Positions 1-43,244 of a DNA stretch of 64,000 nt are shown piece by piece. Source of the stretch: Leucoraja erinacea. Taxonomy: Eukaryota. A program made the position numbers and the translations under genes. The stretch lies in NCBI RefSeq assembly GCF_028641065.1, contig NC_073387.1, positions 38,130,001-38,194,000 on the forward strand. Direction: 5' to 3'. Under the pieces are notes generated by a model that saw nothing but the letters and a program-made list of their open reading frames with translations, was not told the DNA's origin and did not search any database. Each line of letters begins with the position of its first letter. The stretch's first letter is position 1.

Positions 1-1367
1 CTTTTCCACTGGCCCTGCCCGTCAGCTGCGTCACAATAATGGTACAATGGGATCCCGAATTTCATTAACATAAGAAACCGTGATTTTCTAATAAAATCCG
101 TTGTAATCAAATTCTTCCTTTTTCATTAACAGCTGACATCGTGTTTGGTTTTTTTAAAAAGAAAAAACATCATTTTTATTGAGTATTCCATTAACAAAAA
201 AAAAAATCATGATTTTCATTTGGGGGGGGGGGGGGGGGGGTTTCATTTTTCAAAAAATCATTCCGATTTTCATTGTGGAGGGGTGGGGATAGGGGCAGGT
301 GAGGAGTGGGGGAGCAGGGGGATAGTGGGAGTGGAGGGGGTAGGGAGGGGAGAGGGGTTATGGAGGGAGGGAGGGAGGGAGGGAGGGAGGGAGTCACTGA
401 GGGTATCCACGTGTGCGGATTTTGAAATAACTAAAAGTCTCCCCGCGTGTGCGGGATTTGAAATGACCGCGGCTCTGAGACTGGGGAGACGTCTGAGGGC
501 GGCGGTGCTGGGAGGGAGAGGAGCGGGTCCTGGGGTAAGGACTAGGACGCCGCCTCGGCCTCTCTGCCCCCACGCCACTCGGCCCTTCCCCCCCTGACAG
601 GTCCCACCTCAAGTACAACTTAATCGCCGATGTCACGGAGAAAACGGGGCTGGCGGTGGTTTACATCAGATCCTGGGGAGGCGAGGAGAGAGAGTGAGGG
701 GATTGAGGGAGAGGAAAGTGGAGGAGGTGAGGATGGTGAGTGGGGGATAGAGAGGGAGAGGAGGGGCAGAGTGGGGGAGTGGAGGAGGGGCGGAGTGGGG
801 GCTAGAGGGAGCCGTGGCAGTGAGGGATGCGAGGAGGGAGTGTGGAGGGATGAGATAGGGGGGAGGCGAGCAGTGGGGAGGAAGAGGATAGAGGGAGAGA
901 AGGGAGTACGGTGGGGAGATGGGTTATGGAGGGAAGGAGGGTGACTGCGGGCAGGGGAAAGGAGTGGGAGGGAGAGGTGGAGGGGAGGAGGAAAGGGGAT
1001 AGAGGGAGGGTGAAGAGGAGGGGGAGGGAGGAGTGCTGGGGGATGAGGGGGAATGGAGGACGGGAGGGGTAGGAAGAGGGATGGTAGGGTAATGGAGGGG
1101 AGGGGGGAAAAGAGAGGCGGGGAGGGAGGGGTGAGGGGTGGAAGCAGATGAGAGTTTGTGAAGGGTGGGGAGAGGGAGGATAATGGAGGAGGGGAATAGG
1201 GGACTGAAGAGGGAGAGTGAGATGTGTTCACATTTATCTTATAATTTTACAAGTTATTGCCATTTTAAACTTTAAAAACGTCAGCCACGCCTGCGCAGCT
1301 GGGAGATGTGGGAGTGGTGGAATATTGCGCTGGGGGAATGGGACCCAACGGGTCCGCACATGTCTAG
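1..1367 (+). mobile_element. Non-autonomous Helitron-like element, 3' part (5' end outside window)
   Basis: Ends in hairpin GGACCC-aac-GGGTCC (1341-1355), 8 nt, then CTAG (1364-1367) followed by T. Internal segments (13-150, 1280-1367) match the reverse complement of the element at 25679-26963. Purine-rich low-complexity interior. Confidence 0.75.
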
Positions 1368-1502
1368 TATTACATGAAAAACAGGAAAATAACCTGGAAA
1401 TTTGGAGACATTCAGTTTCACTACTGAGTGCTGTATTTATGGAAACACCCATATCTGAAATTAAGAATATCCAAGAATTAAAATTCTGATAGCAATACAA
1501 AC

Positions 1503-1551
1503 CATTAATGACATGTGGGTTAATAACAACCTTCTCTCTAACTTCCATTTT
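1503..1551 (-). CDS. NOP16: NOP16 coding exon 3 (KMEVREKVVINPHVIN, ends phase 1)
   Basis: tttttcag acceptor and gtttgt donor. In frame with exon 2. Resembles vertebrate NOP16 'AMEV...VRKPYVLN'. Confidence 0.8.
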
Positions 1552-2436
1552 CTGAAAAACAAATTAAACCATAATAAGTTAATTTTATCATAATGGCAAT
1601 TTAGCAAAATGCTGACTGAAGACTAAAATGTTGCGTCACATTCTTCCCAATTCATTCCCGTCCCACTTTGGTAAAGAAATATTTCAAAATATTTTGATGA
1701 AACTTATTTTGCTGCTGTATTCTCAATGTTACCCACTTATTGCCTCCCGAACACTGAATGCCATGTACATTACAAGATGCAGAGCAATAGGCCAAATATC
1801 AACTCAAACATCCGCTGCACTGACCAAAAGGGAATAATTTCACTAGATAAAAAATATTATCAAGCATTCCACATCACTAACATCCACTGGATATTTTATT
1901 ATTCTTTGTTTTTATTTTTATTTTTTAAATTTTTTAATTTTATTAGAAGCAATGTACCTACATCTTAATCATAACATGCAACATATTACATTTCTTGTAC
2001 AACTTCTTTTTTTAAAACTTTAACCTATAATAGAAAAAGAGAAAAGAAAAAATAGAAAGAAGAGTGAGGATAGTAGTGGAGTGTAGTCCGCAGTAGTTGG
2101 AGTTAAGTGAATGATAATGGTTAAGTAGGCTGCGTGCTTGAAAATGTGAAAAAAGAAGGAAAAAAAAAAATCTCCACTGAAAAGGAGGTAAAGCAAGAAG
2201 GAAAAGGAATGTGTCAAATTCGATTCACACCCATCACCTAGTTCTAAAAGAATTATTTTCCAGGGTTGTGTTGCACCATATTACACCTGTAACAAATCAA
2301 TGAAAGGTGACCATATTCTTAAGAATTGCTCTTTTTATTATTCTTTGGAGATGGAATAACTCCAATTATAACAAGTAGATACAAACTGAAGATGCCAGAA
2401 TTTTGAGCAGAAAGCAAAGTGTTGGAAGAAAGGAGG

Positions 2437-23478: not shown

Positions 23479-23650
23479 CTAGCGGACTAAAGGCGACTGC
23501 TTAAGTGATATCAGTACAGAGCGCATACGCGATACATCCTTAGACTGCTTGCTGGTTTTGGGATTGAAATCACAAAGGCGTGCTACTCGCTCCCATTCTG
23601 TTCCAGGTGTATCTTCTTCACAATCCTGGACAAAGGCCTCTTCCGCAGCT
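23479..23650 (-). CDS. CLTB: CLTB last coding exon (AAEEAFVQDCEEDTPGTEWERVARLCDFNPKTSKQSKDVSRMRSVLISLKQSPLVR*)
   Basis: atttcag acceptor. Clathrin light chain C-terminal motif. TAG at 23481-23479. Confidence 0.95.
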
Positions 23651-25678
23651 CTGAAATGATAACCAAAAATGAGAAACCAGCATCACATTTGCTACTGTAC
23701 ATTCAGTAAAATTAAGTGACTTACTAAAATGTTAATGCAAATTTTAGCTACTGCTGCCACTTATTCAACAAATATATTAAATGAGGGCACAATTACATCG
23801 ACAGGTATAATAATAATAATAGATCACAGTACCCCAAGCAGCTATTCAACAGCAATTTTAGACAAGCTAACCAATAACTTGGAGCTCATGGCCAAGCTTA
23901 CAATTTGTCCCTTTCCAACACAATGCTTCACTAGATGTTCAAGCAAGGGTTAGAATTATTCCATCCGTCTGTAAGGGTTCTGATGTCATTTGCAACAACC
24001 CTATTAACAATCTAGAATGATCAGATATTTCAGTCAGCACTAAGGAGTAAATTTAGAATCTTGGTTGCATGTCATAGAAAACAACTGCATAACTTTCAAC
24101 CATAATCACCAAATAAACTCAAACTATAACTCTTAACAAATCAAACCAGCAGAATACAAGGTTTTAGTTTTCCAAACTCGTGTCACAAGTGCTTTGCTGT
24201 TCCAATACAAAAGTTAAGCATGATCATACAAACTAATCAGTTTGGTTCGAGAATTTTTCTACTCCTAAACATCTGCAAATAAAATTTATTATGAGGGCTC
24301 GCATCTGCCTGTTCATTCGAAATCAAAGTCATTGAGCTGCATTTCATCTGTTGACATGCAAATTCATAAAGTGAATGAAAGAATGGGTTGTCAATAGAAA
24401 AGTTACCATGCAACTTGATGGACCACATCTTTACACCTAACAATGAATGAGGAAAATGTTGAATGTGAGTGAACATGAAATTTCACAAATTACAGCCAAA
24501 GCAATAAAAATTGTTGGATCATGTACCGTTTTGCCAAATCACACAGCCCGAGCTTGAACTCTCGATTCAAAGTTTAGTCTAACAGTTAAGTTCAATCGGC
24601 CACTTCAGTGGAAATTTTGTCATCTTTTGCCAAAGGGAGGAAAGACTTTCCAAGGCAGGCATTCTGCTTCCCTGGATGGAATACTCATTCAAGTCACAAT
24701 ACCTATCAATTTAGAAAATTGTTAGGTTTTCAAAAGATAGAAAAGTTAGAAACAATATGTAGCAGAGTTCATAGCTCTGGCTTCGAGGCAATGATCAGAT
24801 TAACAAATTCTGGAAGCAGTTAGTCTTGTTACTCCACAGAAAATCCAGGCTAAATTTTCTTTGCATTCTAAAGATCCATGATAAGGATCAACTTGGACAG
24901 ATGTGTCTGAAAGTAGATTTAAGATTAGATACAGAATAGCAGCTTGAAAAGCAGAACCAAACTGAGATGAAGTTTAATAAGACATCTTTTCACACAAACA
25001 GATCAAGTAAATCTAACTTGCACTCGCAATAACAATGAGGAAATGAGATGAAATGCAGACTTGTCAAAAAAAAAGATGGGGGAAAAAAAATCACATCTTC
25101 ACTACAAATATTTTAAATTCAAAGTCTGAGTCTAGCTGTTGAAATCAAACTGAGCCTTGATGTTTGACGATGTAGCTAGCATTGGTTGTTTTTGACCATC
25201 ACATTGGGACAATTCTGAGAAACATCAATTTCAGGTTTATGTATTCTTTTCTCTTATTTTGATCTTTGCTTTATGTTGCTTCCATTGTCATTCTGGTCCA
25301 GAGAAAGCTAAAAAATCAATCTATTCTACCTGTATGATGAGATTAAAACCAAGAACACTGTCACTATTCACTTGGGCTTCAAAAATTGTTTTAAATCACG
25401 CATAAACCATAAAGAACATTTAAAATTTTGATAGGCAACTATACTATAAAAAAACACAAGCCTAGACTGCACGAGTAGGGATTCATATTCCTATTCCACT
25501 TCTCACCTACAACCCACTCATTTAAACATTTGCATTACTTCATTCACTATCGTTATTTGTACATCTTACAGTATCTAGCCCTAAATATAGAATGCTATAA
25601 TCATTCAAACTTTCAAACACTCAAAAAATCCCCAATGTTTCTACTTAAAATGAGCCACAAATCTGGATTTAGTTTCCA

Positions 25679-26963
25679 CTAGACCAGGTGCGGACCCGTT
25701 GGGCCCCATCCCCCAAGGCAATATTCCACCACTGACCCATAGCTCCCAACTGCGCAGGCACGGCTGAGGGGTTCCCATTCTGACACCAAGAGATCCCCGT
25801 TGAGACGGCAACCCTCCATCAACTGCCTCTCTTCCTACCCCTATCCGCCTTCATTCCCCCTTATCCCCCAGCACTCCCTCCCCTTCCTCTTCTTTCCCCT
25901 CCCCCTCCCCTCTCCTTTCCCCTCCCCTCTCCTTTCCCCTACCCTCATCACTCCCTCCATAACCCCTCTCCCTCCATCCTCCTGCAATCCTAAACCTCCC
26001 CTATCCTACTCCCCCACTCTCCCTCATCTCCCCACTGCCCGCCTCTCCCCTCTATCCCCCACTGCCGGCCTCTCCCCTCCCCCACTGCCCGCCTCTCTCC
26101 TCTATCCCCCACTGCCCGCCTCTCTCCCTCTACCCCCCACTATACCTCCCCTACCCCCTCTCCTCTTGCTCTATCCCCCCCCCCCCCCCCCCTCCTCCTC
26201 TCACCTCCCCCAATCCCACTCCCAAATGAAAATCAGTTTTTTTTTAAAATGAAACCCCCATCCTTCTCCCTCCCCCCCACCCCCCTCCCTCTATCTCTTC
26301 TCCCCCCCCCTCCCCCCCCAGTGAAAAGCGTACATTTTTTGAATTAAATTCACATTGAAAATCGTGTTTTTTTCTTCAAAATAACCTAAACACAATATTA
26401 GCTGTTAATGAAAATGGAAGAATTTGGTTAAAATTGAGTTTTTTTTTAAAAGCGTGATTTTTTAATGTAAATGAGATTCGGGATCCCACTGTAATGTTGA
26501 ACACGGCTGACGGGCAGGGAGGGGGGGGGGGGGCACGGGTAGGGGGGCACAGGGGAGGGGGGGAGGGGGGGGAGGGGGGGGGGGACGGGACGGGGGGGGG
26601 GCGACGGGACGGGAGGGACGGGGGGGACGGGGAGGGGGGGGACGGGGAGAGGGGGGCGACGGGGACGGGGGGGGGGGGAGGGGGGAGGACGGGACGGGGA
26701 GGGGGGGGACGGGACGGGGGGGGGGGGGACGGGGAGGGGGGGGACGACGGGGGGACGGGACGGGGAGGGGGGGGACGGGACGGGGAGGGGGGGGGACGGG
26801 ACGGGGGGGGGGGGGGGGGACGGGGGGGGGGGGGGGGGACGGGACGGGGAGGGGGGGGACGGGACGGGAGGGGGGGGGGGGACGGGGAGGGGGGGGACGG
26901 GACGGGGAGGGGGGGGACGGGACGGGGACGGGGGATCGGGGAGGGGGGGGCGATATAGATAGA
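25679..26963 (-). mobile_element. Apparently full-length non-autonomous Helitron-like element
   Basis: Minus strand starts A|TCTATCTATAT and ends gggcccaacgggtcc-gcacctggt-CTAG|T. No TSD. Same family as 1-1367. Confidence 0.75.
26510..26950. repeat. Extreme G-rich (GGGAC / poly-G) low-complexity array
   Basis: Repeated gggac / ggggag units. Source of the spurious Pro- and Gly-rich ORFs. Confidence 0.85.
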
Positions 26964-27900
26964 TAGCCTCCGGGACACCCTTCCTATAGCAAGTGGCCAG
27001 ACTGTTTAATGCCATACCTTAATATTGGAATTTACTGCAAAAACTAATGTCTAGCATTGAAAAGTAATTTCAGTAGCAGTAGCATGGAGGAAGGTCTGAA
27101 GTTGAAATCTGCGTCGGGACTTTTTGGAGTAATTACATATAAGGAACAAAGTATCTGTGGATGTCAAAAATATAAAATGAAAATGCTATTTAATATTGAA
27201 AATAATTGCTCTGATTAGAACTTGAGTCAAAGAAACAATGCAATGAAGTTGGAATATTGATTGAAGAATATTAGCAGTCTACTGTTAACACTATATAATG
27301 CAACAGAGGACCTATAGCATGAGCTCCATGCAAGAACTACTTTCAATGCCAAGAGCATGCCTAATTGGGATGGGGCAGGAAGAATGTTTGTGAACGACTA
27401 GTTTTGTTCTGATGCAGGATATTGACTTCCCTTTGTCTTCGTAGATGCTGCCCAACCCTGTGTGTTCCTCCTGCAGCTTTTTTTTTAAACTAACCATGTA
27501 CATTTGTATATTAGCTATTACCCGTGCCGAATACAAAAGAAACAAGAGATTAGCTGGCATCCACCACTGCTGAATCAACAAATATCTCTGTCTAGAGGAA
27601 CATGTAGGTTCAGTAATTAAACTAGCTCCAACATTTTGTCTAGTTTTACCTGAACAGCTGCTTAAGGCACTGGGGGTAGATTCAAAGATATGGAAACATG
27701 TTTTAACATTATAACGGTGAGAAAGTTTTGCTACAGAATAATTAAACTACAAAATTAAAGCTGGTAGTCAAATATTATTCTAATCTAAATATTAGATATT
27801 GCAGTCTTAAAGTACTAGGTTTGACTCATTTGAAAATGTAAATATTTTAAAAGTCGTTCTACTGCTAATGTGCAATTAACAAAGAAAATAGCCAACATAC

Positions 27901-27954
27901 ACGTAGCCTATCACATCAGCGAAGGACTGTTTGTAGAAAGCTTCGTCAGCGATC
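27901..27954 (-). CDS. CLTB: CLTB 54-nt neuron-specific alternative exon (IADEAFYKQSFADVIGYV)
   Basis: cactag acceptor and gtatgt donor, phase 2-2. Homologous to the 18-aa neuronal insert of clathrin light chains. Confidence 0.92.
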
Positions 27955-28804
27955 CTAGTGCACATGCATGTTAGTCCAGAAAGTGAACCAGCAGATCAAC
28001 AGGAAAGGGAGCACAGAAGTTGCAACAGGTACAGAAAAGACAAGGAATAAAAAGAGGAAGGACAGTGTTAATATTTTTAGTAAGTATTTCACCTTTGCCT
28101 GGAATAAAGCTAGGAAAATAGTTAAGTGAAGAAAATTTCCATTACAAATCTGCAGTTCAATTGTGTATTGTTAAGACAATCTAATTCTGGCAGTCTAAAG
28201 TAAAGCTAATTTTACAATGGACACATTGCATTATGGACTGTGAATCCAGTCACTATTCAGTTCAAGTTATCAGTCATAATTTAACATTCAAATTAGTACA
28301 TTCAATGTTACAAGCATGCTCTTTAAATGTGATATTTGCCCAAAAAGAACAGTGTAAACAAACTTCAATAAAAAACATTTCTGCAAAATCTAGTTCAAAT
28401 TGCAAAAAATACAGCTAAATCCAGTTGTGAGGAATCAAATCCCCACCTCTAAATTTTAAAACTTACTTTACTCTCCATATTGAATTTTTTTTAATCGTGA
28501 CAATATTGTTTCTGAAAAGCTCTAACGTATTCAATTAAGCCCCCTGCTTGAAATGTTTAGTGTCAAAATAGCTTTGAAACTCTTAGGCACTCCATTTCAG
28601 ACTGTAATTTTTACTTTAAAACACCCCTAATCCCATATTCTTTGTTGCTTTATCTCAAGACTGCATTTTAGCAACTAACCATCTGCCACCAGGCTTCCAC
28701 CCAAATTTACCTGCCGTTTGTGAGAAAAATGCAATCTAATGCTAAAATAACTGCAATCATCCTCAAAATATTTGCAACCAACTACTCCAAATACACAACA
28801 TTCC

Positions 28805-29185
28805 TGTGTACATGATGTACCAAATCATGAGGAACAGATTGGATAAACGCACAATCTCCTGCCCAGAGTAGGGGAAATCGAGAACCACAGGACATGGGTG
28901 TAACACGGGGGGGGGGGGAAAGGGGAAGGAATAGATTTAATAGAAACCAGCGGGGTAACTATTTATTTTACATAAGGGTGGTGGATGTATGGATCGAGCT
29001 ACCGGAGGAGGTAGTCAAGGCAGATACTATCTCAACATTTAAGACACATTGAGACAGGTACATGAATAGTATAGGTTTAGAAGGATATGGGCCGAATGCA
29101 GGCAGGTGGGACTAGTGTGGATGGGGCATGTTGGTCGGTGTGGGCAAGTTGGGCCAATGGGCCTGTTTCCACAATGTATGACTCG
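28805..29185 (+). mobile_element. CR1 3' fragment
   Basis: gcaggcaggtgggactagtg...gggcctgtttccac 3' UTR shared with about 18300-18650. Confidence 0.75.
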
Positions 29186-30220
29186 TAAAGTGTACTTGCC
29201 AGAATTGGCTTGAACAGCAGTTTAAGTGTTTAGCATTATTCTTTTGTATTCATACTCCATGCCTCCTCAAAACTTCAAACACCATTTTTAATGGCCTTGA
29301 TCGTCATCTTCAAAGATTCATGCATCTCATTCTGCAGATATCCAAGATGGAAAGTTAATTAAATCCAAGTAAACAATTGCATAAAGCTCAGAACAGAGGA
29401 TGAAAAATCCAGTTCTAAATGATCACGCATAGTTATTTGATTTTATCCACGGTAGACAAAAATGCTGGAGATTTTATCCAAGTACTTGCATTGACTTAAG
29501 TTACGATGACCTGCAAAATACAAGTCTTAATTTGTTATATAATGTTGACATGAAAATTAAAAATATTCTGAGAGGTCCGTACAAGAAACACTGATTTTAA
29601 ATAAATTTGTTCCTTTGCGGTTGCTCGTTATCTGTAAATGAATTTTCAAAGCAGATAAAGGCAAACAGGAGAAATTTGAATAAACTACTTTAAGCACTTC
29701 AAGGTATAAAGTAAAATTCCAGGGTAATCAAGGCCATTGTTTAAAAATGCTTCTTTCCCTGAAGCAATGACAGTCAAGGACTAGAAGAGTGAGCCAAACA
29801 ATTTATAATTGTAACAGTAACTTTTGTAACACCTTTACTCAAAATTGTGGCCTCACCCAGACTAGTTAGAACCCAATGTTACATGATGAGATTGTGCATT
29901 GCTGCAATCTATTCCTCATAAATGCACTGTATGTCTGCTGTGCATAATAAGATCTATAACTAAAACTAACATTACAATGCTCTTACAAAAAATATAATCT
30001 TACTTGTATAAGGAAGATGGAATAGGGATTACCATCCAAGCTTCACAAATAAAGCCCCAAAATATTAAGTTATTTAAGTTGAAACTCTTGATACTTCCGT
30101 ACTAACTGGAATTAAATGAACATCCACCGGGATTAAAGCATTTCTAGTCAAATTCTATTTGGAATAGCCCATACCATTAAGCATAAAATATTTTGGTGCT
30201 TAACCAAAATATTTTTTTAA

Positions 30221-31152
30221 TATAACCATATAACAATTACAGCACGGAAACAGGCTATCTCGGCCCTACAAGTCCGTGCCGAACAACTTTTTTTCCCTTA
30301 GTCCCACCTGCCTGCACTCATACTATAACCCTCCATTCCCTTCTCATCCATATGCCTATCCCATTTATTTTTAAATGATACCAACAAACATGCCGCCACC
30401 ACTTCCACTGGAAGCTCATTCCTCACCGCTACCACTCTCTGAGTAAAGAAGATCCCCCTCATGTTACCCTTAAACTTCTGTCCCTTAATTCTGAAGTCAT
30501 GTCCTCTTGTTTGAATCTTCCCTATTCTCAAAGGGAAAAGCTTGACCACATCAACTCTGTCTATCCCTCTCATCATTTTAAAGACCTCTATCAAGTCCCC
30601 CCTTAACCTTCTGCGCTCCAGAGAATAAAGACCTAACTTATTCAACCTATCTCTGTAACTTAGTTGTTGAAACCCAGGCAACATTCTAGTAAATCTCCTC
30701 TGTACTCTCTCTATTTTGTTGACATCCTTCCTATAATTGGGCGACCAAAATTGTACACCATACTCCAGATTTGGTCTCACCAATGCCTTGTACAATTTTA
30801 ACATTACATCCCAGCTTCTATACTCAATGCTCTGATTTATAAAGGCTAGCATACCAAAAGCTTTCTTTACCACCCTATCTATATGAGATTCCACCTTCAA
30901 GGAACTATGCACGGTTATTCCCAGATCCCTCTGTTCAACTGCATTCTTCAATTCCCTACCATTTACCATGTACGTCCTATTTTGATTTGTCCTGCCAAGG
31001 TGTAGCACCTCACATTTATCAGCATTAAACTCCATCTGCCATCTTTCAGCCCATTTTTCCAAATGGCCTAAATCACTCTGTAGACTTTGGAAATCCTCTT
31101 CATTATCCATAACACCCCATATCTTGGTATCATCTGCATACTTACTAATCCA
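30221..31152 (-). mobile_element. Young 5'-truncated CR1 LINE with open RT C-terminal ORF
   Basis: ORF 30298-31167: SKYADDTK, WQMEFNADKC, LVRPNLEY, LERRRLRGDLIEVFK, with no stops. Confidence 0.93.
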
Positions 31153-31360
31153 ATTAATACAAGTCAATTTTGAGCATAGTTAGAATTGTGCAGAATTTTT
31201 TTAATTTCTAAAGTAGACCCACTAGCTTAGTTTATAAGAAATTGCGTTGGAAAAGCAACTAACATCTCATTTAGAATTAGGTATTCTACAGCCATTTGTG
31301 GTAGCAAACCTATGAATTAGAATTTTCAACAGCTGAGATGAACTTTAAACATTACCATAC

Positions 31361-31472
31361 CTGTTATGTTTCTTCATTTTCTCCAATTGCTCATTCTGTC
31401 GAATATACCATTCATCCAGTTCTTTTCGTGCCTTCTCTTTCCATTCCAATTCGGCTTTTCGAGAAGCAGCAT
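31361..31472 (-). CDS. CLTB: CLTB coding exon 4 (DAASRKAELEWKEKARKELDEWYIRQNEQLEKMKKHNR)
   Basis: ttatcag acceptor and gtatgg donor, 112 nt, phases consistent. Confidence 0.95.
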
Positions 31473-32925
31473 CTGATAAAAATGTTTTAAAATGACAACT
31501 TGGACGACAAACAATGGCTTGTAATTGCTCCATTCAGTTTTCCTCTACATTTCATGCAACTTCACAAATACAATGCTTAATTTACAAGAATCCTAGAGAA
31601 AGTGACATAGTCTGTAGGAGGGCAAAGGATCAATAGGAGTTATAATAACAGGAAAATCTATGCAGGAGGTTTGGTGGATTTAACACCCACATTATGAATA
31701 ATACCTTTTACTCGTGCGACTGCGTATTTTACCAACAGATACTAAAATTAGCAATGTGGCTCACAATGAGAAAAACACGAAAACTACAAGGACGATACCA
31801 AATTTTTATTTGCTTCATATCTCCAGATAGGATTTCAGCAAATTGATGGGACCGCAGTAGATGAAAAAGTCATTAGTCTGGGAATTGCTTTGTTTGTAGA
31901 AAGCAACCCCAGCATGGTCACTTTTCTGGGGTTGTTCTAACAGGAAGATCAATTAAGATGAATAGATTTAACTAAACAAAATTGAGGCTTAAACTTTGAC
32001 AGAGTTCAGTAACTAGGGAAGCAAAGTAATTGGAAAGAACAGGGAAGTTGAGAAAATATTCAGGAATTGTGCAAGGATACAACAATTTCAAAAATGGAGG
32101 CAGAAGCACACTTCCACACAACATTTACTGAGTGGCTACACAAATATTAGACCCATAACACACTACAGAATGAGGAACTTTGTAATCTAAACAGCTCATT
32201 TGTTTGGCTGCCAGGGCTGTTTGTTAGCTCATGATGCAAATTTATACGAGTAAACATCAAAAAGTGAACACAAAATGAACTGTAATCACTTCTGAAACAA
32301 TACCAAGATGACTATTAAAGTGCATGAGCAGAATAGTTTACTGTAAACAAAGTGAACTTTTCTACAAAGTATAAAAATGAAACACCTGATCAATAATTAG
32401 TGCTGTATGCAGACTTGAATACATCCTAAACCCTGCACACAACAATTAGATGCTGGAAAACGCTTCAAAAACATGGCATACGGGAACACTCAAGGCTCAA
32501 TTCCTACAAACCAAAAACCCTACTCAGCCGAAACAAGCATAAACAAACCACAGGTAACAAGTTGGATTTTTTTGTTTTGAGGATTGTAAGTAACAGATAA
32601 TATTCCATTACAGCAATTTAACTAACTAAAGAAGTTTCAGAGTAAAACAGTAGGGAAATTTTCATGAATCCAATCTAAAAGAATAGTGGTCTTTAGTTAA
32701 TGGAATTAGTTACTTTTCTCAAAAAAAATTGTATTTATAGTTAAAACATTGTTAATTGTTATTGTTAAGCATTTATAAAGCATTGTTGATTCTTCACCCA
32801 CACGCATGCAGAGAAGCATTGGAAGTTTTTAATTCTCCCACTAGACATAAATGGTTTATGCATTTTCATTTTATGATTAACGTGAGACTAATGTTACTAA
32901 TGCACACACAAAAATTACATCATAC

Positions 32926-33043
32926 CAAGGTTTTCTAGACGAGTTATCTGTTCTTCTCTCCATTTTCGAATGCTTTCTGGTTCCTGACTCAAGCGGTCTG
33001 CTCGAGCTATTGCTGCATAACTGTCGCTTGGACCGTTTGATTC
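32926..33043 (-). CDS. CLTB: CLTB coding exon 3 (ESNGPSDSYAAIARADRLSQEPESIRKWREEQITRLENL)
   Basis: aatacag acceptor and gtatga donor, 118 nt. EPESIRKWREEQ motif. Confidence 0.95.
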
Positions 33044-34115
33044 CTGTATTAACAAATCATTACACAAGTACGACTCAGTCTCTGTTGATGGGACTGCACT
33101 TATCAATTCCTGCTTAAAATATGCATGGCAAATTCTGCCAAATGTTTTATCTTCAGATTATGTTTGAATTAAGCATAGTATTAGTACCCAGAACATTCTG
33201 ATAGGCCCGATTATAGTTTTTATTCTCTTCATTGAGGCTTCACTGGTTTCTTTTCCTAGTTCACTGTATGCTGCACCACCAAGATTTGAGACATTAAAGT
33301 ATAAAAACCACTGGTATTATATTAAGTGATTTGTGACATCATTTCCAAGTGATTTGTGACATCAGTCACTTCAGAAAAACTCAAAATGATTTTCTTAATT
33401 TCTCCTTGTTTTACATTAAGTTGTCATTTTGCTAACTTTCAGATCAGATCAAGCTTACTGCCCAATGGGCTCTACCTGTAAGACATGTTAATGTAATTTT
33501 CTTTACAATTAACTGAATACCTTTCCCCAAACTGAATTACTTCTCTGAAACATACCATTGGAAACTTAATGTGACCATAACCGCAAACGTTTACTTATAA
33601 AAATTAAGCTTCAAAATTGTGCTTCCTCCAACTCCAGGTAATCAATAATGTACCATGGATATACACTAGAATCCAATTTAAAGGTCTCAATTTTGCAGTC
33701 AATGATGACCCACAGTAAGACTATATTTAGGACGGTATAGATCCACAAGCATCCAATCATGCTCCCAAGGTTGTCTGATCCTCAACATCAAGATCTTGCA
33801 TTATATCACAACTTCATATATTGAAATCCTTTGTGGTGGAAAAAGCCACAGCAAGCAAGCAAAAATGTTGACATTCAACCAAGCTTTAAAAACCACTATA
33901 GCATAGAACCAAAATTAGAACATGCTAAAATTAACACTCAAATGAAAAAACATATTTATATTCCAGAGTAATTAAGAGTCAACTAAAGATTGGAATAACT
34001 TGAACATGACTAATCAAATGAATGCAGACATCCTTTCTGCACAAGGTCAACACATGTTGTTAAAGCAAATTATTTACTTAAAAAATTACTGTAATTGAAA
34101 CATTTTCACACTAAC

Positions 34116-34162
34116 CTGATATACTTCTCCATTAACTGCATTAATTTCATCTTTAAATTCAT
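34116..34162 (-). CDS. CLTB: CLTB coding exon 2 (DEFKDEINAVNGEVYQ)
   Basis: cttttcccccctag acceptor and gttagt donor, 47 nt. Bridges phase 1 to phase 0. VNG.V.Q motif. Confidence 0.88.
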
Positions 34163-34711
34163 CTAGGGGGGAAAAGATATAAAGTTGATGCAATGATACA
34201 CATCGACAATTGTACAGAAAATGTACAAGTTGCATTTGAAGTACAAGAAAGTCATACCATCCAATTTATCAGTTTGTATGCCAAGATTAGAGACCAAGCA
34301 TCCGTGTCACAGCTTTCCACATTTATCTGCAGGTTCGTGACAAAAGTCATTTGATTGGCAATAACTGTGCCATTTAAACCACACAACCGCAGTCCAATAG
34401 ATTTTGTCAGTATTGAACAAAATATCTACATCTGGCTATCTAAACATGCAAATCAAAGCATTAAAACCAACCTCTCTTGAAGGGAAAACAAGCAAAATCC
34501 TCAATAAAATACAAATTTGAAGTTATTTTTTATATTTCAACTGAGAAATATGATACAATGAGGGGAAACATGGCTAGTACCCAATCTAAGGTCTGTAATT
34601 TAAACCTATGTCATCAAGATACTCTTTAAATTATTTAAGGCAGACAGCTACATTTCATTCTGAAGAAGTCAGAAATATCCAGAAGCATTAAGAGAGACAG
34701 CATTTTGATCT

Positions 34712-36308
34712 CATAGAAACATAGAAAATAGGTGCAGGAGTATGCCATTCGGCCCTTTGAGCCTGCACCACCATTCAATATGATCGTGGCTGATCATCCA
34801 ACTCAGTATCCTGTACCTGTTTTCTCTCCATACCCCGATCCCTTTAGCCACAAGGGCCACATCCAACTCCCTCTTAAAAATAGCCAATGAACTGTAAAAG
34901 ATGATTTTCTCATCTCATCTCGGTCCAAAAAGACTTCCCTCTTATCCTTAAACTGTGACCCCTAGTTCTGGACTTCCCCAACATCGGGAACAATCTTCCT
35001 GCATCTAGCCCATCCAACCCCTTCAGAATTCTGTAAGTTTCTACAAGATCCCCCCTCAATCTTCCAAATTCTAGCGTGTACAAGCCAAGTCTATCCAGTC
35101 TTTCTTCATATGAAAGCCCCGACATCCCAGGAATCAGTCTGGTGAATCTTCTCTGCACTCCCTCTATGGCAAGAATGTCTTTCCTCAGATTAGGAGACCA
35201 AAAGTGTATGCAATACTCCAGGTGTGGTCTCACCAAGACCCTGTACAACTGCAGTAGAACCTCCCTGCTCCTACACTCAAATCCTTTTGCTATGAATGCT
35301 AACATACCATTCGCCTTCTTCACTGCCTGCTGCACCCGCATTCCCACTCTCAATGACTGACGCACCATGACAACCAGGTCTCGTTGCATCTCCCCTTTTC
35401 CCAATCGGCCACCATTCAGATAATAGCCTACTTTCCCGTTTTTGCCACCAAAGTGGACAACCCCACATTTATCCACATTATACTGCATCTGCCATGCATT
35501 TGCCCACTCACCCAACCTATCCAAGTCACCTTGCAGCCTCCTAGCATCCTCCTCACAGCTAACACTGCCCCCCAGCTTCGTGTCATCCGCAAACTTGGAG
35601 ATGTTGCCTTCAATTCCCTCATCAAGATCATTAATATATATTGTAAATAGCTGGGGTCCCAGCACTGAGCCTTGCGGCACCCCACTAGTCACTGCCTGCC
35701 ATCCTGAAAAGGACCCGTTCGCTCCTACTCTTTGCTTCCTGTCTGCCAGCCAGCTCTCAATCCACACCAATACCGAACCCCCAACACCGTGTGCCCTAAG
35801 TTTGTATACTAATCTCTTATGTGGGACCCTGTCGAAAGCCCTCTGAAAGTCCAGACATAACACATCCACTGGTTCTCCCCTATCCACTCCACTAGCCACA
35901 TCCTCAAAAAATTCTATAAGATTCGTCGGACATGATTTACCTTTCACAAATCCATGCTGACTTTGTCCAATGAATTCAACACTTTCCAAATGTGCTGCTA
36001 TCCCATCTTTAATAACTGACTCCAGAATTTTCCCCACCACCGATGCTAGACTAACTGGTCTGCAATACCCCGTTCTCTCTCTCCCTCCCTTTCTAAAAAG
36101 TGGGGTTACATTAGCTACCCCCCAGTCCTCAGGAACTACTCCAGAATCCAAAGAGTTTTGAAAAATTATCACTAATGCATCCACTATTTCTGCGGCTACT
36201 TCCTTAAGTACTCTGGGATGCAACTTATCTGGCCCTGGGGATTTATCGGTCTTTAATCCATTCAATTTACCTAACACCACTTCCCGGCTAACCTGGACCT
36301 CACTCAGA
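34712..36308 (-). mobile_element. 5'-truncated CR1 LINE with 470-aa open RT frame and an apparent A-to-G excess
   Basis: ORF 34910-36322 with KSPGPD, SQHGF, VTSGVPQGSVLGP, SKFADDTK. Tail reads catagaaacatagaaa on the plus strand. Confidence 0.95.
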
Positions 36309-36877
36309 TAGAGTCCTTCCATCTCTAAATAAATCTAAAGCCTATTCTCCATTCATATCTGACCTGTGCATTCATTTTCACCCCTTTCCTGCCAAGTTGC
36401 CCATCTGTCTTTATCTCACACTTCATTGAAACTTGTGCCTGAACCTGATACTCTTTTAAGGAATTGTGTATGACACTTAGTAACATCTCCTTGCTCCCTC
36501 GTCTCAATCATCTAAGATTAGAATGAGAGTTCCCTTTTAGGATTTCAAACATAATAATTGGGTTACTTATTCAAGTTCATTCCCCCTCAAGCACTCTTTG
36601 AACTCTGCCGTGTTCCTTCAAAGGCAAAAAAAATCCCAAGTTACATTTTCTAGAATGTCCTGTGTGGTGACTTCTTAACATTCATTTAACAACTATAGAC
36701 AACACACCTTTCAGCCTAAATATTTGTGATGACAGGTGGTTTGGTTTGTTCCGATACGACCTACACCCTTGAGCTTTCTTCAATGGCATGGATACCGAAG
36801 AGAGTGAGAGATTTCCATGCAAAGTTGATGAAACAGCCAAAATAGAACGGAGCTATAGAGCAAAATAGAACTCCCGA

Positions 36878-37112
36878 TGAGTGGTGAATCTGTGGAATTC
36901 TCTGCCGCAGCATGTAGTTGAGGCCAGTTCATTGGCTATATTTAAGAGGGAGTTAGATGTGGCCCTTGTGGCTAGGGGGATCGGGGGGGTATGGAGATAA
37001 GGCAGGGATGGGATACGGAGTTGGATGATCAGCCATGATCATATCGAATGGCGGTGCAGGCTCGAAGGGCCAAATGGCCTACTCCTGCACCTATTTTCTA
37101 TGTATCTATATG
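36878..37112 (+). mobile_element. CR1 3' UTR fragment, inverted relative to 34712-34895
   Basis: Close reverse-complement match to 34712-34895. Confidence 0.8.
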
Positions 37113-38979
37113 AACATTTAAAATCAGAGTGAAAAATTCGAACTGATTTGGAGGCTAGGAAGAATAAAATTAATCCTATGTTGGTTACTTGTAAAACAGA
37201 TACATGCAAAAATAATATAACAGGATTACACCATTATGAGTACTTAAACTCGCTGCACTATTAAATATTATTTGATTTTGACCTTTGCTGCAATTTTCTC
37301 AGCACAGGACACGTCCCCCACCCCCATGAACAAAAATATTAAGCTCACGATTAATCTCGATTCGGCTTTCACAGCTCTCTAGAGCTCCACTGATTCGCAA
37401 CTTTCAAAGAAAGCTCATCTTCCTAAACAGATAACATTCATTCTGAATCTTGGGTTAAATTTATAACCATAGGATGCAAGCTGGAAAGCTGTACAAGTCT
37501 CAAATCTGGAGGTGACCGAAATAAGTATGGTTTAACAGTATGCAAAAAAGCCCAACATGGAACCAAAGAATCAGTTCAAAAGATGCACCGATTGCAAACA
37601 TTTTGCTTTGATGAATTTTCAGCCCACAAGAGGCGCAGTTGTGAATTGGAAATAAGACTAGAGCCTGGTGGCCACATATGTGCAATGGATCCCAATGCAA
37701 AACCTATACCAATGTCAGGCAAATACAAGCATAACAGTACTTATGAATATTTGCCTGATAGTTAACAGCGAGTGCAAGGTCAGAAACGAAAGTGAAATTT
37801 ATACCTGTACTCCTGAAGGGCATGTCGAAAATAATACAGCTCATCTCCTATAATTGCTTTTTATAAACATAGCAAACATTAAGCATTAATAACATAGTAA
37901 TTAACAAAACAAAAAGGTTAGTCACAGCTGGGTTTACCCGGTTGGAAGTACTAGAATTTTAGAAAAGTCGCAACAGCATATAGAATATATGAAGGTGGTG
38001 CAAATCACCAAGATGAGAAAAACAAATTGCTGGTAGAACTGAGATTAGGCAGGATCCATTGAAAGAAAAACAATGTTTCCAATCTGGAACCAGTCATAAC
38101 TAAAATTAACTGTTTTTCTTTCACAGATGCTGTCCGACCTACTGAATTTCTCCACCACATTTCAGATTTGCAGCTTTTGCGTTTTTTGTCTTTCAAAGCA
38201 ACTACAAATGAGAGGTTTCACTTATGTTAATAGACTGGAGAAACTCTCATTATTTTTCATTAAGTTAAAAAAGTAGAACTGATCCATGAGGTATTTGAAA
38301 TAATGCAGGGCACAGACTTATGGCAGATCAAAACCAGCATCATAGAATCATAGCAAATGTTGAGAAATATATGTCATTCCCTAAAAGGAAAATGCCATAG
38401 CTGATCACAAAAATTGACAACGATTGCAGAAAACTGCAGCACAAGTGATTTGGGGGTCACACATAAAGCACATTTAGGTGTGGCAGGTAAATTGGGAAAA
38501 GCTACTGGAAAGCACAGTTTTATTTGGAGGTTGGAGTATATGAGCAGGGAAGTTGTACTACAAATATACATGATGCTAGCGAGAACACGTCAAGTACTGA
38601 ACTGTATTCACCCCTTACGGAATGAAACATCACTAGCTGCAGTTTAAAGAAGTTTCAATGGGATGAATCTGGGAACACGTTTTGAGATTGAAAGGTTGAA
38701 CAGAATGCACTTGGAGTTGAAGTATAATGTCACTGAAAAAGATACTTGGGAACATGACAAGTACAGGTAGGGGACTTCATTGAAGAGTCTAGGATCAGAG
38801 CAAGGGGTGGGGTGCTAAGAGTTCTCTTAAAAACAAGGAAGAAATTATTCGAAGATAGACACAAAATGCCTTTATTTTATCTGTGTGTTTTTTTTTAAGT
38901 GTTTCGTAAAAAGCATCAAGTGGCTCAGGTCTGGAAGGCACTGCCAAGGATAGTAGCAGACTTAACTACAGAGCTAGTC

Positions 38980-39220
38980 CAGTCCAGAACCAGAGGTTTA
39001 AGAATAAGGGGCAAGCCATTTAGAACAGATAAAATGAACCACTTTTTCAGAGAGTTACGAGTCTGTGGAATTCTTTGCCTCATAAAGATAGCAGAGTCAG
39101 GGGATATGGGGAGAAGGCAGGAACAGGGTACTGATTATGGATGATCAGCCATGATCACATGGAATGGCAGTGCTGGCTCGAAGGGCCGAATGGCCTACTC
39201 TTGCACCGATTGTCCATAGT
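38980..39220 (+). mobile_element. CR1 3' fragment (older CR1 remnants at about 38200-38850)
   Basis: tccagaaccagaggtttaagaataagg...gatcagccatgatcac...gaagggccgaatggcctactc. Confidence 0.7.
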
Positions 39221-40226
39221 ATACTAAGAATTTTAAAGGAAAAAAATGTGAAATTACAGGGAAAAGATAGATTATTGGGACTCACTGGATTACTCTTAAA
39301 TTGAACCATAACATACTCCACCAGCCAAAGTGCCTCTCACTAATGATGGTTTGCAACTAAACCTTTTGAACACTTGACCTCTTGGCACAATATGGCCACA
39401 AAACATAAGCAGGTGAAGGGGGTTGGAAAGCATTACACACAATTAAATACTCCAATGGACATGTGGTAAATCTAGTAATACTACAACCAGGTAGCCTCCA
39501 TGGGGCCATACAGGTGAAGCAAGATGGAAGAAACACACACGTCAGAAAACAGCTTTCAGTTTATATTGGCACGGATGAACAAATACCATTTTTTTTTTAA
39601 ACAGTACCAGTTAATCACTCTGTAGAACTGTAATTTAATATGTTGCAATTTGCTGGTAAATTGTATAAATTTCAGGATACAAAGTCAAAACATCAAATAA
39701 ACGGCTTAATAGCTTACTCAACAAACCTTGAACATTGTAACCTTCCCAGTGTTAAGCTAAACATAACATTAAATATGTTTTACTATACTGTAAACTATAC
39801 ATGAAAAATGGGGTTTACAGCATCTTTCGCTCAATGTGTCTTTTAAAAAGTGTGGTGATGACACACACACACACCCTTTAGGAGGCAGTAGCATAATGCT
39901 TTGTGGCCCTTGTTCAACTAAGCATTCAGAACATAGGTCATAGGCCAATGTTTTCTTTGCTACACAATCAGCAATGTTATGGTTACTTCAGCAGAATGTC
40001 CATGCAGAGGAAGACCAAGGAAAGCATGAACTTAAATGCTGGAGTTAATGATTAACTCTTGGCAAAACAGCAGAATATTTAGTTTATTCTATTGATAAGC
40101 AAGGTCTGTAACAATTTAAAATTCATGAGCTCAAGTTTTCCTTCAATAAAGCAATACTGATGAATGTAGGCTCACCATTTCAAAATATTTATTAAATGCC
40201 TAAAACCAGTCCTAAAATGAGCAATG

Positions 40227-40445
40227 TAGACACAAAGAACTACATATGCTGGTTAATACACAAAGGGACACAGAGTGTGGAATAACTCAGCAGGTCAGGC
40301 AACATCTCTGGAGAACATGGATAAGAGACGTTTCGGATCAAGACCAAACTTCAGATTCAACTGAAGAAGGGTCTCGACCGTCACCTATACATGCTCTTCA
40401 GGGATGCTGACTGACCTGCTGAGTTACTAGAGGACATTTTGTCAC
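40227..40445. mobile_element. Palindromic Penelope-derived terminal-repeat unit
   Basis: taactcagcaggtcaggcaacatc...gacgtttcgg...cttcag | ctgaagaagggtctcgacc...gatgctgactgacctgctgagtta. Confidence 0.75.
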
Positions 40446-41798
40446 TTTGCCTATTTGGAACAAATTTGGATAGCCACTCAAGCCAGTTTTGATATTGATG
40501 ACCACCACGGCAAAATTTGAATACCAATCCACTTTCCTTTGCTAACTGATCTTTGCCATCCAAATGAAGCTTTATTCTCAACATAAAATTGTAGCGTTTG
40601 CCTGTGCTGTAGTGGTTCTACAACTGATTTATAGCAGTGGCAACCATTTATATTGGTGTAACAAACTAAGTAGTTGAGAATAATAAATATCCACAGGGCT
40701 GCTCTTCAGGTTACCCTGCTGTAAAATTACAGAGAAGACTTGGAAATCATAATTCATTTTCACATAGAACTTCATCCTTTACATAAAAGTTGAAGTAGTC
40801 AAAGATAGGTTAACTACATTAAAATAACTCGCATATTTAATGTGATATCAAATAGAAATTTAAACTTACTACTAATATAGCGAGTCAGTCATGTACAATA
40901 TGGCATAGCACTCAAATAGTCAAACAGCATAAACAAACTGAACAAATGTACGTATACTCACCCATCCAAAGGTTTGGTATATTTAAGTAAAGTAATGTAT
41001 AGGGCATAAATCAATCATGGTATTTATAAGATTAGTAATCCATCAAATAACAAAATGAGCAACTTTCTCAGTAAACTAGTGGTCGATTGCACAAGTCACT
41101 AAAACCATGATACAAGGACAACGTATGCTCAAGGTTGCGAATCCTTGCTACACACACGCTAGGAACACCGAAAGGGCAAGTTAACGTAATTCCTTTGAAC
41201 ATTAAAAACTAGTTGAAGTGCAGAATCAGCAAACTCTATGGAATTAACAAAGTATTCAAACATTCAGGCGGAAGCAAATTTGGCAGGAGCTCTGGAGACA
41301 CTACGCGGGAAGCACGATAAAATTGCAGTCGTTTCTCCGGTCACTAAATGACAGATGCACAATAGGATACTTCTCTTTCGCAGCGCCAACGCGGAAAGTC
41401 AGGGAAGCGACGCAGGAACTCGGCTCCTTTGCGGAGTAATTAGCAATGTCATCTCGAGTGACGACGCTGCCGGAGCTCAACTCGCAAACCACCGAGCGGT
41501 GTTTCGCCAAGTTGGGAGACGACCCCCGGTTTAGACCGCTATCCTAACCCGGCGAGGGTTGTTTCAACACAGACAAGCGTCGCTTCACAACACTGCTCGG
41601 TTTATAGTTTAAATAAGTGGAAATACTTCTGGTCCACTTCACGAGGGGGGAAAAAGGGCCCAACAATACAAAAAGGCACAGCTGCCAGGAGGCGCTTGGA
41701 AGAGGAGGAAGCTGCGGGCAGCCGGACTCCACGCCCCGGGCAGGGCCGGGTGTTGCCCCCGAATCCCCGCCGCCCGCAACTGCCCTCACCCCGCTCAC

Positions 41799-41988
41799 CT
41801 GCAACATCGTCCGGGTGCGGCGGCAAGGCCGACGGCACCTCCCCGCTGTCCAGGATGCTGAACCCTTCGTCGTTCTCGATGCCGGCGATCTCGCTCTCCT
41901 GCTGCGCCAGGAAAGCAGCGGCCGGGTCCTCCTCGGCGCTGCCCGTGGTGCCGTTGTCGGAGGAAAAGAAACCGAAGTCTTCTGCCAT
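41799..41988 (-). CDS. CLTB: CLTB coding exon 1 (clathrin light chain B; MAEDFGFFSS...EEDPAAAFLAQQESEIAGIENDEGF...)
   Basis: aagATGG start. Conserved consensus EEDPAAAFLAQQESEIAGIEND. CLTB-type N-terminus. gtgag donor. Synteny with NOP16, HIGD2A and FAF2. Confidence 0.95.
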
Positions 41989-42120
41989 CTTCGACGGGTT
42001 GCTGCCACTGAGCGGAAGCGAGACGCGACACACCGGAAGCTGCCCCGGCTCCCTGACGTCACCCTTATCCCGCCGCCGGCACCCGAAGCCCCGCCTCCCT
42101 CCCCGCACGTGATCATCCCT
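41989..42120 (-). promoter_or_regulatory. CLTB CpG-island promoter: ETS-like CGGAAG x2, full CRE TGACGTCA (42054-42061), GC box, E-box CACGTG (42106-42111)
   Basis: Motifs read directly from the sequence just upstream of the ATG. Function not demonstrated. Confidence 0.65.
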
Positions 42121-43244
42121 GTTGTGCAAAGGCTACATGGCTCTAAAGATGCACTGCAATGCATTGCTCCACTCTACTTTAAAGTGAGAGCATGTTAGAC
42201 AAATGAAACTGTTCCTCAGAACTAAAATAACCAATTCAGCAGAGTTGAGACAAAGGTAAAGGACTGCAGATACTGGAAAAACTAAATTCTGTGGAGAGTG
42301 ACATAGAGCAAAATTCCACATCAATAACTTTCAACAGAGTTCTGATGGAAGGTAATAAATAAATTCTCACTAAAGTGTTGGATGAACTACAAAATTGCAG
42401 CTGATTTACGTAAAAGGCAAAATTTGCAGAAAAGTAATGTAGCTTTTTATTAATAGTGATACATTTTGAAAGTCAAATTCAGTTGCCATATTTATTATAA
42501 TTGCTTAAACTGGACAAGCACTGTATTATCTTTACACAAAAAAATGGGTTGGTGGGGATATGGCCCTAAACCTTGGCCCAATCAAAGTCTGGGGGTTGGT
42601 GCCATTGACTGCATCCTACCAAGCCAGACTACCCTACTTCAAACTCTTAACAGTCCACCAAACCACTTTTCACACTACCTCGTAGCTGCCTAACCAAGTA
42701 CAGGGTTATGTGTACCTGTAAATCAATCCCTTGTCTAGTTCATGTGAGGCTATGTCACCTCTATTTCCCTCTTTGCAAGATTGGTACTGAGGGGTCAGAT
42801 TCTGTGTGTGTCCGTGTTAGAAAGTGGGAGAGTCTATATGTGAGCAGATATAATCTGCCAAAATATTGCAGTTGAGGTGTAATGTTACGGAATTTGCAGC
42901 ATCACAGTTTAGGTGGAGGCTCAGTATCGATCTGAAACATTAACTCTGTCTTTCTGTAGCTGTAACATCATCCACTGTCAGGATAGATAAGTCTCTGTGG
43001 TGATTTTGCAAGGTTTATGTCATTTCCCTGTCATCTATTACAACCTATATATTATCCTTCCAAGTGATCTGCTCAGGAGACTGAGTTGCATCCATTTATC
43101 GAGATACAGAATAATCAATTGATATTGGTTAGAGATCTGAAATGCCATCTGTCCATTTCTTCCATAGGATGCTGCCCGACTCTCTGGGTGCCTCTAGCAC
43201 TTTGTTTTATGCTCAAAATTCTACCATCTGCAGTTTCTTGTGCT

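Follow-up and report, generated by a model that had tools for sequence, protein, structure and literature searches.

A CR1 retrotransposon copy with sense-strand A-to-G hypermutation and the case for ADAR editing of its RNA before insertion

A CR1 LINE copy in the genome of Leucoraja erinacea carries A-to-G substitutions at about ten times the usual level, all of them on one strand. We consider it very likely that ADAR edited a CR1 RNA while it was paired with antisense CR1, and that germ-line retrotransposition of the edited RNA followed. With ~8–10% of its A's changed, the copy is only mildly affected, and its value is that of one member of a strand-controlled class: besides it, five clearly A>G-hypermutated copies and one weak copy were found. 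The edited copy is most likely a rare by-product and an RNA-editing fossil rather than a member of a working subfamily.

The CR1 copy and its setting

The window, that is, the whole stretch of 64,000 nucleotides that was analyzed, corresponds to G000:C11:38130001-38194000 in a genome of 2.19 Gb; its features are collected in the table. We take the element to belong to the CR1 clade from its tail and its sequence motifs. It shares ~90% identity with its closest relatives in the genome, has lost its endonuclease through truncation and, like those relatives, terminates in an 8-mer repeat of the TTTCTATG type. The family is high-copy (one 27-base site is matched by 50,489 copies in the genome) and dispersed, and most members are 5′-truncated with varied 5′ ends. 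In birds, one study describes CR1 elements with a 3′ hairpin followed by an 8-bp microsatellite tail, ATTCTRTG, and presents the hairpin as a hypothesized recognition site for the reverse transcriptase (PMC8665684).

An earlier note on this DNA had pointed to an open reverse-transcriptase frame, which is indeed present (Pfam RVT_1, E=1.1e-29). It had also taken the openness of the frame as a fit for A-to-G change. That argument is weak, since stop-free frames of greater length occur in 5 of 29 comparators and the stop closing this one is the product of the private 5-base duplication, which lies beside the 52-base deletion.

Two clathrin light chain exons lie on the same strand as the element, from which we infer that the CR1 copy is intronic and in sense orientation to this gene. 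The first exon of the gene presumably lies within the frame 41602–42132, for which a Pfam search returned no match. No paralogue of the spacer 5′ of the element was found in the genome, and there is thus no sign of a transduced source flank.

Table. Features of the window and A>G-hypermutated CR1 copies elsewhere in the genome (counts for a copy cover stable columns and leave out the motif that it matched)
Feature	Position	Strand	Remarks
CR1-type LINE copy, 5′-truncated	34712–36308	-	3′ 1.6 kb: reverse-transcriptase (RT) region, 3′ UTR, short TTTCTATG-type tail
Stop-free frame, 474 codons	34910–36334	-	RT domain at residues 88–294
Private 52-base deletion and 5-base duplication	34890–34915	-	near ORF2 end
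A>G hypermutated tract	35011–36299	-	33 of 34 strict A>G sites (remaining one: 34864); 5′ G depleted
Element 3′ end without A>G	34712–34815	-	0/23 stable A's
Spacer 5′ of element	36309–36878	.	single-copy
Inverted 230-base 3′ fragment, same CR1 family	36879–37109	+	570 bases from element
Clathrin light chain exon	31360–31473	-	Pfam PF01086 positions 124–161
Further clathrin light chain exon	23488–23652	-	Pfam match
Clathrin light chain gene, inferred host of the CR1 copy	23488–41970	-	two exons by Pfam, first exon putative
L131	G000:C2:35543830-35546856, locus 1143–1804	-	A>G 27/158, T>C 2/153
L192			A>G 17/151, T>C 0/139
L153			A>G 12/94, T>C 1/92
L191			A>G 7/52, T>C 0/57
L195			A>G 7/43, T>C 0/51
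L194			A>G 2/61, T>C 0/65; weak outside its motif

A-to-G changes in the window copy

The strong sense-strand A>G excess claimed in the earlier note is borne out by two counts. In the first, each column was compared with the majority base among the 29 copies in the genome that are closest to the element, and A>G stood at 48/483 and T>C at 5/403 (Fisher p=7e-9), with 1–16 A>G changes in each comparator. Because these comparators had been picked by likeness to the query, a stricter second count was made over the 1,506 of 1,651 columns at which at least 93% of 221 ordinary segments agree, the segments being drawn from similarity searches, fixed-position samples and motif hits. This strict count gave A>G at 34/434 versus T>C at 4/372 (p=2.6e-6), whereas the pooled ordinary segments showed 0.80% and 0.78%, respectively. 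As for other substitutions at the strict columns, A>C was absent, A>T and G>A occurred four times each, and C>T twice; A>C, T>G and T>C were at background level. G>A (4/439) was at or below background, with no APOBEC-type clusters of G>A seen on the sense strand. Fourteen of the 48 sites fall at family-variable columns, and since 10–12 of the 12 nearest relatives carry A there, the true A>G count of the window copy is 34–48.

The changes are neutral for the protein sequence (nonsynonymous 24/277, synonymous 9/108, p=1). They are also evenly spread, with a longest inner gap of 54 A sites (p=0.28), and the patchiness described in the earlier note is not borne out. That note had read individual residue changes against CR1 sequences within the window, which are actually distant families, 70–78% alike across the coding part. 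The residue changes it named correspond to A>G at 36121, 36063, 35463, 35274, 35065, 35011, 35044, 35031, 35856, 35841 and 35829 and to one T>C at 35928, except that the change from N to Y is an A>T at 36067.

Searches for copies sharing the same substitutions found none among those scored. The best other match was 93% for an edited 261-base stretch (40 scored of 2,749 candidates) and 90% for an edited 63-base stretch (40 scored of 211), and no other copy crossed the deletion junction at 34890–34915 among 40 scored of 260 candidates. Copy L005 was rejected as a sibling, its 53-base deletion being a different one. No daughter copies of the window element were found.

The G alleles claimed for the genomic DNA agree with short-read contigs where these give cover: of the 48 A>G sites, 10 are covered, and nine or more of those match G. 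The support consists of contigs, not raw reads, run X1 may come from the very sample that the assembly was built from, and the support concerns the window copy alone. One X1 contig, 110 bases long and at depth 38 (single-copy), spans 35307–35416 with one differing letter; this interval holds 10 departures of the window from the 29-copy majority, eight being A>G. A second X1 contig, spanning 36268–36905, shows zero differences and takes in the A>G sites 36298 and 36299. Organisms A, B, C and D are all represented among the contigs crossing the 5′ junction, that of B reaching just 27 letters into the element, and the insertion therefore appears to predate the split of these organisms. The contigs of B, C and D begin at 36282, 36268 and 36264 and have no difference listed at 36298 or 36299, though 1, 1 and 2 differing letters, respectively, are unlisted; those of A and C both start exactly 30 bases before 36298, as a shared variant would cause. 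A second read check over 35660–35960 (99% likeness; runs X2, X4, X6 and X8) yielded, in all four runs, neither a contig of single-copy depth across the densest clusters nor any cover of 35759–35791, but such contigs drop rare variants and these holes prove nothing. The share of words present in X1 is 0.79, a value that is not decisive when set against the share of 31-mers with private differences.

The wider class and its sequence context

The earlier note had proposed that a hyper-edited class could be looked for, and motif searches recovered at least five further A>G-hypermutated copies. Motif 1 required at least two of five chosen A's to be changed to G. It returned 34 matches, 31 of them scorable (L135, L146 and L158 have no alignment over the motif and were left unscored), and two copies, L131 and L153, were hypermutated outside the motif. 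The T>C mirror of this motif at the same site returned 39 matches, all scored, with a T>C excess in L188 alone (T>C 7/82 vs A>G 1/91); three of its seven changes lie within four bases, and the mirrored context is absent. Its T>C excess is possibly due to antisense editing or to a multi-base event. L188 (G000:C40:3670055-3673081, positions 1231–1640) is a tail-less CR1 piece; its locus is dense in repeats and also holds palindromic repeats and the inverted end of an older CR1. Motif 2, requiring at least three of five chosen A's, had five matches (L131 again, L191, L192, L194 and L195), and its T>C mirror had none. Motif 3, run without a mirror control, recaptured L131 and L153 and added one older copy, L211, which is unscorable (older subfamily, 78%). 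L131, recovered by three motifs and with all five motif A's changed, is the most heavily edited copy found.

Two properties characterize the class. First, several of its copies are otherwise nearly unmutated, with 1–7 other changes, and age therefore does not explain them. Second, their 5′ ends differ and only one non-A>G change is common to any of the 21 pairs, which indicates separate events. Recurrence of edited sites is modest (20 shared, 72 and 118 unshared, 1,064 neither). With motif columns included, the stable A columns of the seven copies read G 128 times, T 5 times and never C, and C was found at 7 of 985 stable T columns. The bare count of five or six A>G copies versus one T>C copy is not significant (p=0.13–0.22); the contrast between A>G and T>C rests on intensity and context.

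Such copies are rare. Two found among 50,489 translate into 4–37 at that site for per-site rates of 35–8%, or roughly 1 in 1,400–14,000 copies. The subfamily would hold a few tens at most, and the effect on the genome is small. Motif-free sampling, which comprised ~460 kb at set positions, the window and the similarity-ranked copies, yielded no second hypermutated copy. Three candidates for mild cases, L051, L097 and L016, were at background after removal of family-variable columns. The long copy L144 (G000:C7:42038772-42041798) has a mild excess of A>G over T>C (11/420 vs 5/366, stable columns) and may be lightly edited. Some copies met in these searches have structures of their own. L161, L162, L163, L174, L203 and L207 all start at family position 775 and have a double T>C change in common, which suggests a small subfamily or a duplicated composite unit. 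L088 and L092 display an identical rearrangement of pieces 141–605, 1194–1665 and 1389–1659 in mixed orientation, suggestive of a duplicated, internally inverted CR1 able to give fold-back RNA.

The context of the changes was compared through the neighboring bases. In the window copy, the A>G rate by 5′ neighbor is 12/91 (13.2%) after T, 12/117 (10.3%) after A, 6/86 (7.0%) after C and 4/140 (2.9%) after G, and 5′ G differs from the rest (4/140 vs 30/294, p=0.007). In the six other copies, with all motif columns excluded, the rate is 21/89 (23.6%) after A, 14/96 (14.6%) after T, 11/102 (10.8%) after C and 8/209 (3.8%) after G (p=8e-6), whereas in ordinary copies it is flat at 0.7–0.9% (p=0.75). 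Work on ADAR specificity reports that ADAR1 and ADAR2 favor U or A above C or G on the 5′ side, this neighbor weighing most (PMC3113232), and that upstream G is low at edited sites (PMC2873906). The observed 5′ bias fits this preference. The ADAR neighbor bias predicted in the earlier note is thus seen on the 5′ side; enrichment of 3′ G is not significant in the window copy (13/144 vs 21/290 for other bases, p=0.57) and stands at 27/187 vs 27/309 (p=0.054) in the six others. Over the seven copies, the last ~100 bases are spared (4/157 vs 82/746, p=5e-4), with L195 as an exception (3/23 edits there).

Proposed editing mechanism, rival explanations and known systems

The mechanism that we favor comprises four steps. 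First, a CR1 transcript would pair over ~1.3 kb with antisense CR1 RNA, supplied either in trans or by a read-through transcript that includes an inverted copy. Second, ADAR would deaminate ~8–10% of the adenosines in the paired RNA. Third, the 3′ hairpin and tail, largely unedited, would leave the RNA usable by the CR1 reverse transcriptase, and inosine would be taken as G during target-primed reverse transcription. Fourth, the edited copy would have become fixed before organisms A–D split. ADAR is named here from sequence context alone, and the source locus, the antisense partner and the edited RNA were not found.

The reverse-transcriptase region of an unedited relative (901 bases) does not fold unusually as RNA (z=-0.84, 20 shuffles), which makes it probable that the partner was either a separate RNA or an inverted copy that the source transcript contained. 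At the present loci no partner fits the edited span, and no inverted copy of the same family was found within ~1.5 kb of the six other class copies. The inverted fragment at 36879–37109 was rejected as the partner behind the edits, given that it pairs just with the spared 3′ end and shows A>G at 0/60 on the host-sense strand. The fragment had looked edited at first count, with 4/55, and gave 2/52 at stable columns (p=0.22). Two of its sites carry a G where L191 and L192 are likewise edited. Hyper-editing is heavy in chicken CR1 RNA, owing to 3′ fragments in opposite orientation that pair into dsRNA (PMC5625713). For human L1 RNA over more than 2.5 kb, PMC5224506 reports no editing upon ADAR1 over-expression in cell culture.

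The main rival is polymerase error at insertion, which we regard as unlikely: error-prone Pol eta, or the element's own reverse transcriptase at low dATP, would place G opposite template T on the sense (second) strand. Such errors would yield sense-strand A>G within the insert only and independently between copies. WA motifs are common to both explanations, Pol eta being described as favoring them in PMC11817618, and a 5′ T or A gives the top contexts here. However, A>C is missing and A>T is at background in the pooled A columns, A's after C are also struck well above background (11/102), and the 3′ tails are spared. Pol eta spectra are rich in transversions. Slippage models, by our reasoning, would favor A beside G, opposite to the observed depletion of 5′ G.

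An assembly or polishing artefact in a high-copy repeat is very improbable. Locus-specific contigs cover just 10 of the 48 sites, but those of X1 at single-copy depth carry G where they cover, and the A and C contigs share their start 30 bases before 36298; errors, moreover, would neither track element sense on both genomic strands nor avoid 5′ G. The same low probability attaches to a change in place after insertion, through an A>G bias linked to transcription or through cDNA of edited host pre-mRNA converting the copy, an explanation that we consider largely refuted. The direction of the changes does match the host sense strand, and an inverted family fragment lies 570 bases off. Other repeats in the clathrin gene, however, show A>G at 1/396 on that strand, with 0/260 for one sense-strand LINE and 0/60 for the inverted fragment, and this fragment could pair with the unedited 3′ end alone. 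Change in place would also make T>C copies and A>G copies equally frequent, and no inverted partner of their family was found within ~1.5 kb of the six other copies. Least probable of all is GC-biased gene conversion or a separate subfamily rich in G: family-variable A/G columns do account for 14 of the 48 sites, but 34 are at stable columns and the nearest relatives have A at the others, T>C is not raised alongside A>G (nor are A>C and T>G), and no near-identical copy was met among those scored.

ADAR editing before insertion is hence the reading that we retain. The core idea of the earlier note, an edited CR1 RNA reverse-transcribed and fixed, passes three tests directed at its refutation. 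Its suggestion of an anti-retroelement or diversifying process is unsupported, in that the class is very rare, the changes are neutral, no daughter copy was found and the edited RNA evidently still inserted. More broadly, it is likely that ADAR-edited LINE RNAs repeatedly enter the germ line, and that the genome thereby keeps an inheritable and dated record of A-to-I editing that took place in germ cells or in early embryos. In it, spared tails would mark the needs of the CR1 reverse transcriptase, and edited spans would map the CR1 duplexes that existed. If this is true, RNA edits turn into heritable DNA through LINE retrotransposition, the LINE reverse transcriptase can still use edited duplex RNA, and ADAR acted on CR1 RNA in cells founding the germ line. 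In-vivo ADAR editing of LINE RNA would also become a question testable from genomes alone, and edited copies would look older than they are.

Several known systems offer partial parallels, compared here from the available portions of the papers cited. In chicken CR1 hyper-editing (Porath et al. 2017, PMC5625713), the likely substrate is alike, but editing was measured in RNA only, with no description of edited copies in genomic DNA. In the restriction of LINE-1 by ADAR1 (Orecchini et al., PMC5224506), ADAR likewise meets a LINE ribonucleoprotein; restriction there is independent of editing, whereas here a trace was left and insertion was not blocked. Avian retroviruses (Rous-associated virus as well as avian leukosis virus; reviews PMC12925331 and PMC8586724) display ADAR-type A-to-G hypermutation, an A-to-I editing of retroelement RNA that is similarly kept as A>G in the DNA copy. 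They differ in being infectious LTR viruses with short tracts and ~50% of A's changed, in contrast to a non-LTR element with ~8–17% of A's changed over 0.2–1.3 kb, inherited and apparently common to related species.

A further likeness is to retrotransposons that were edited by APOBEC and are now fixed in the genomes of vertebrates (Knisbacher and Levanon, PMC4866542; Lindic et al., PMC3880073), among them 85 of 32,872 L1 elements in the lizard. There too, rare copies bear a dense, strand-specific and context-biased load from one round of retrotransposition and are inherited. The first of these studies confined its screen to LTR elements and judged clusters of other mismatches negligible; the second looked for G>A, using C>T as a control, and detected none in lizard CR1. 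Outside subscription papers, we came upon no account of LINE copies that ADAR had edited and that had become fixed in a genome, and the published screens did not look for this class in LINEs. The APOBEC systems differ from the present one in that they produce G>A through cytidine deamination of DNA, whereas A>G in an ADAR-like context in a CR1 LINE implies an RNA stage, which would make this class an RNA-stage counterpart of APOBEC DNA editing.
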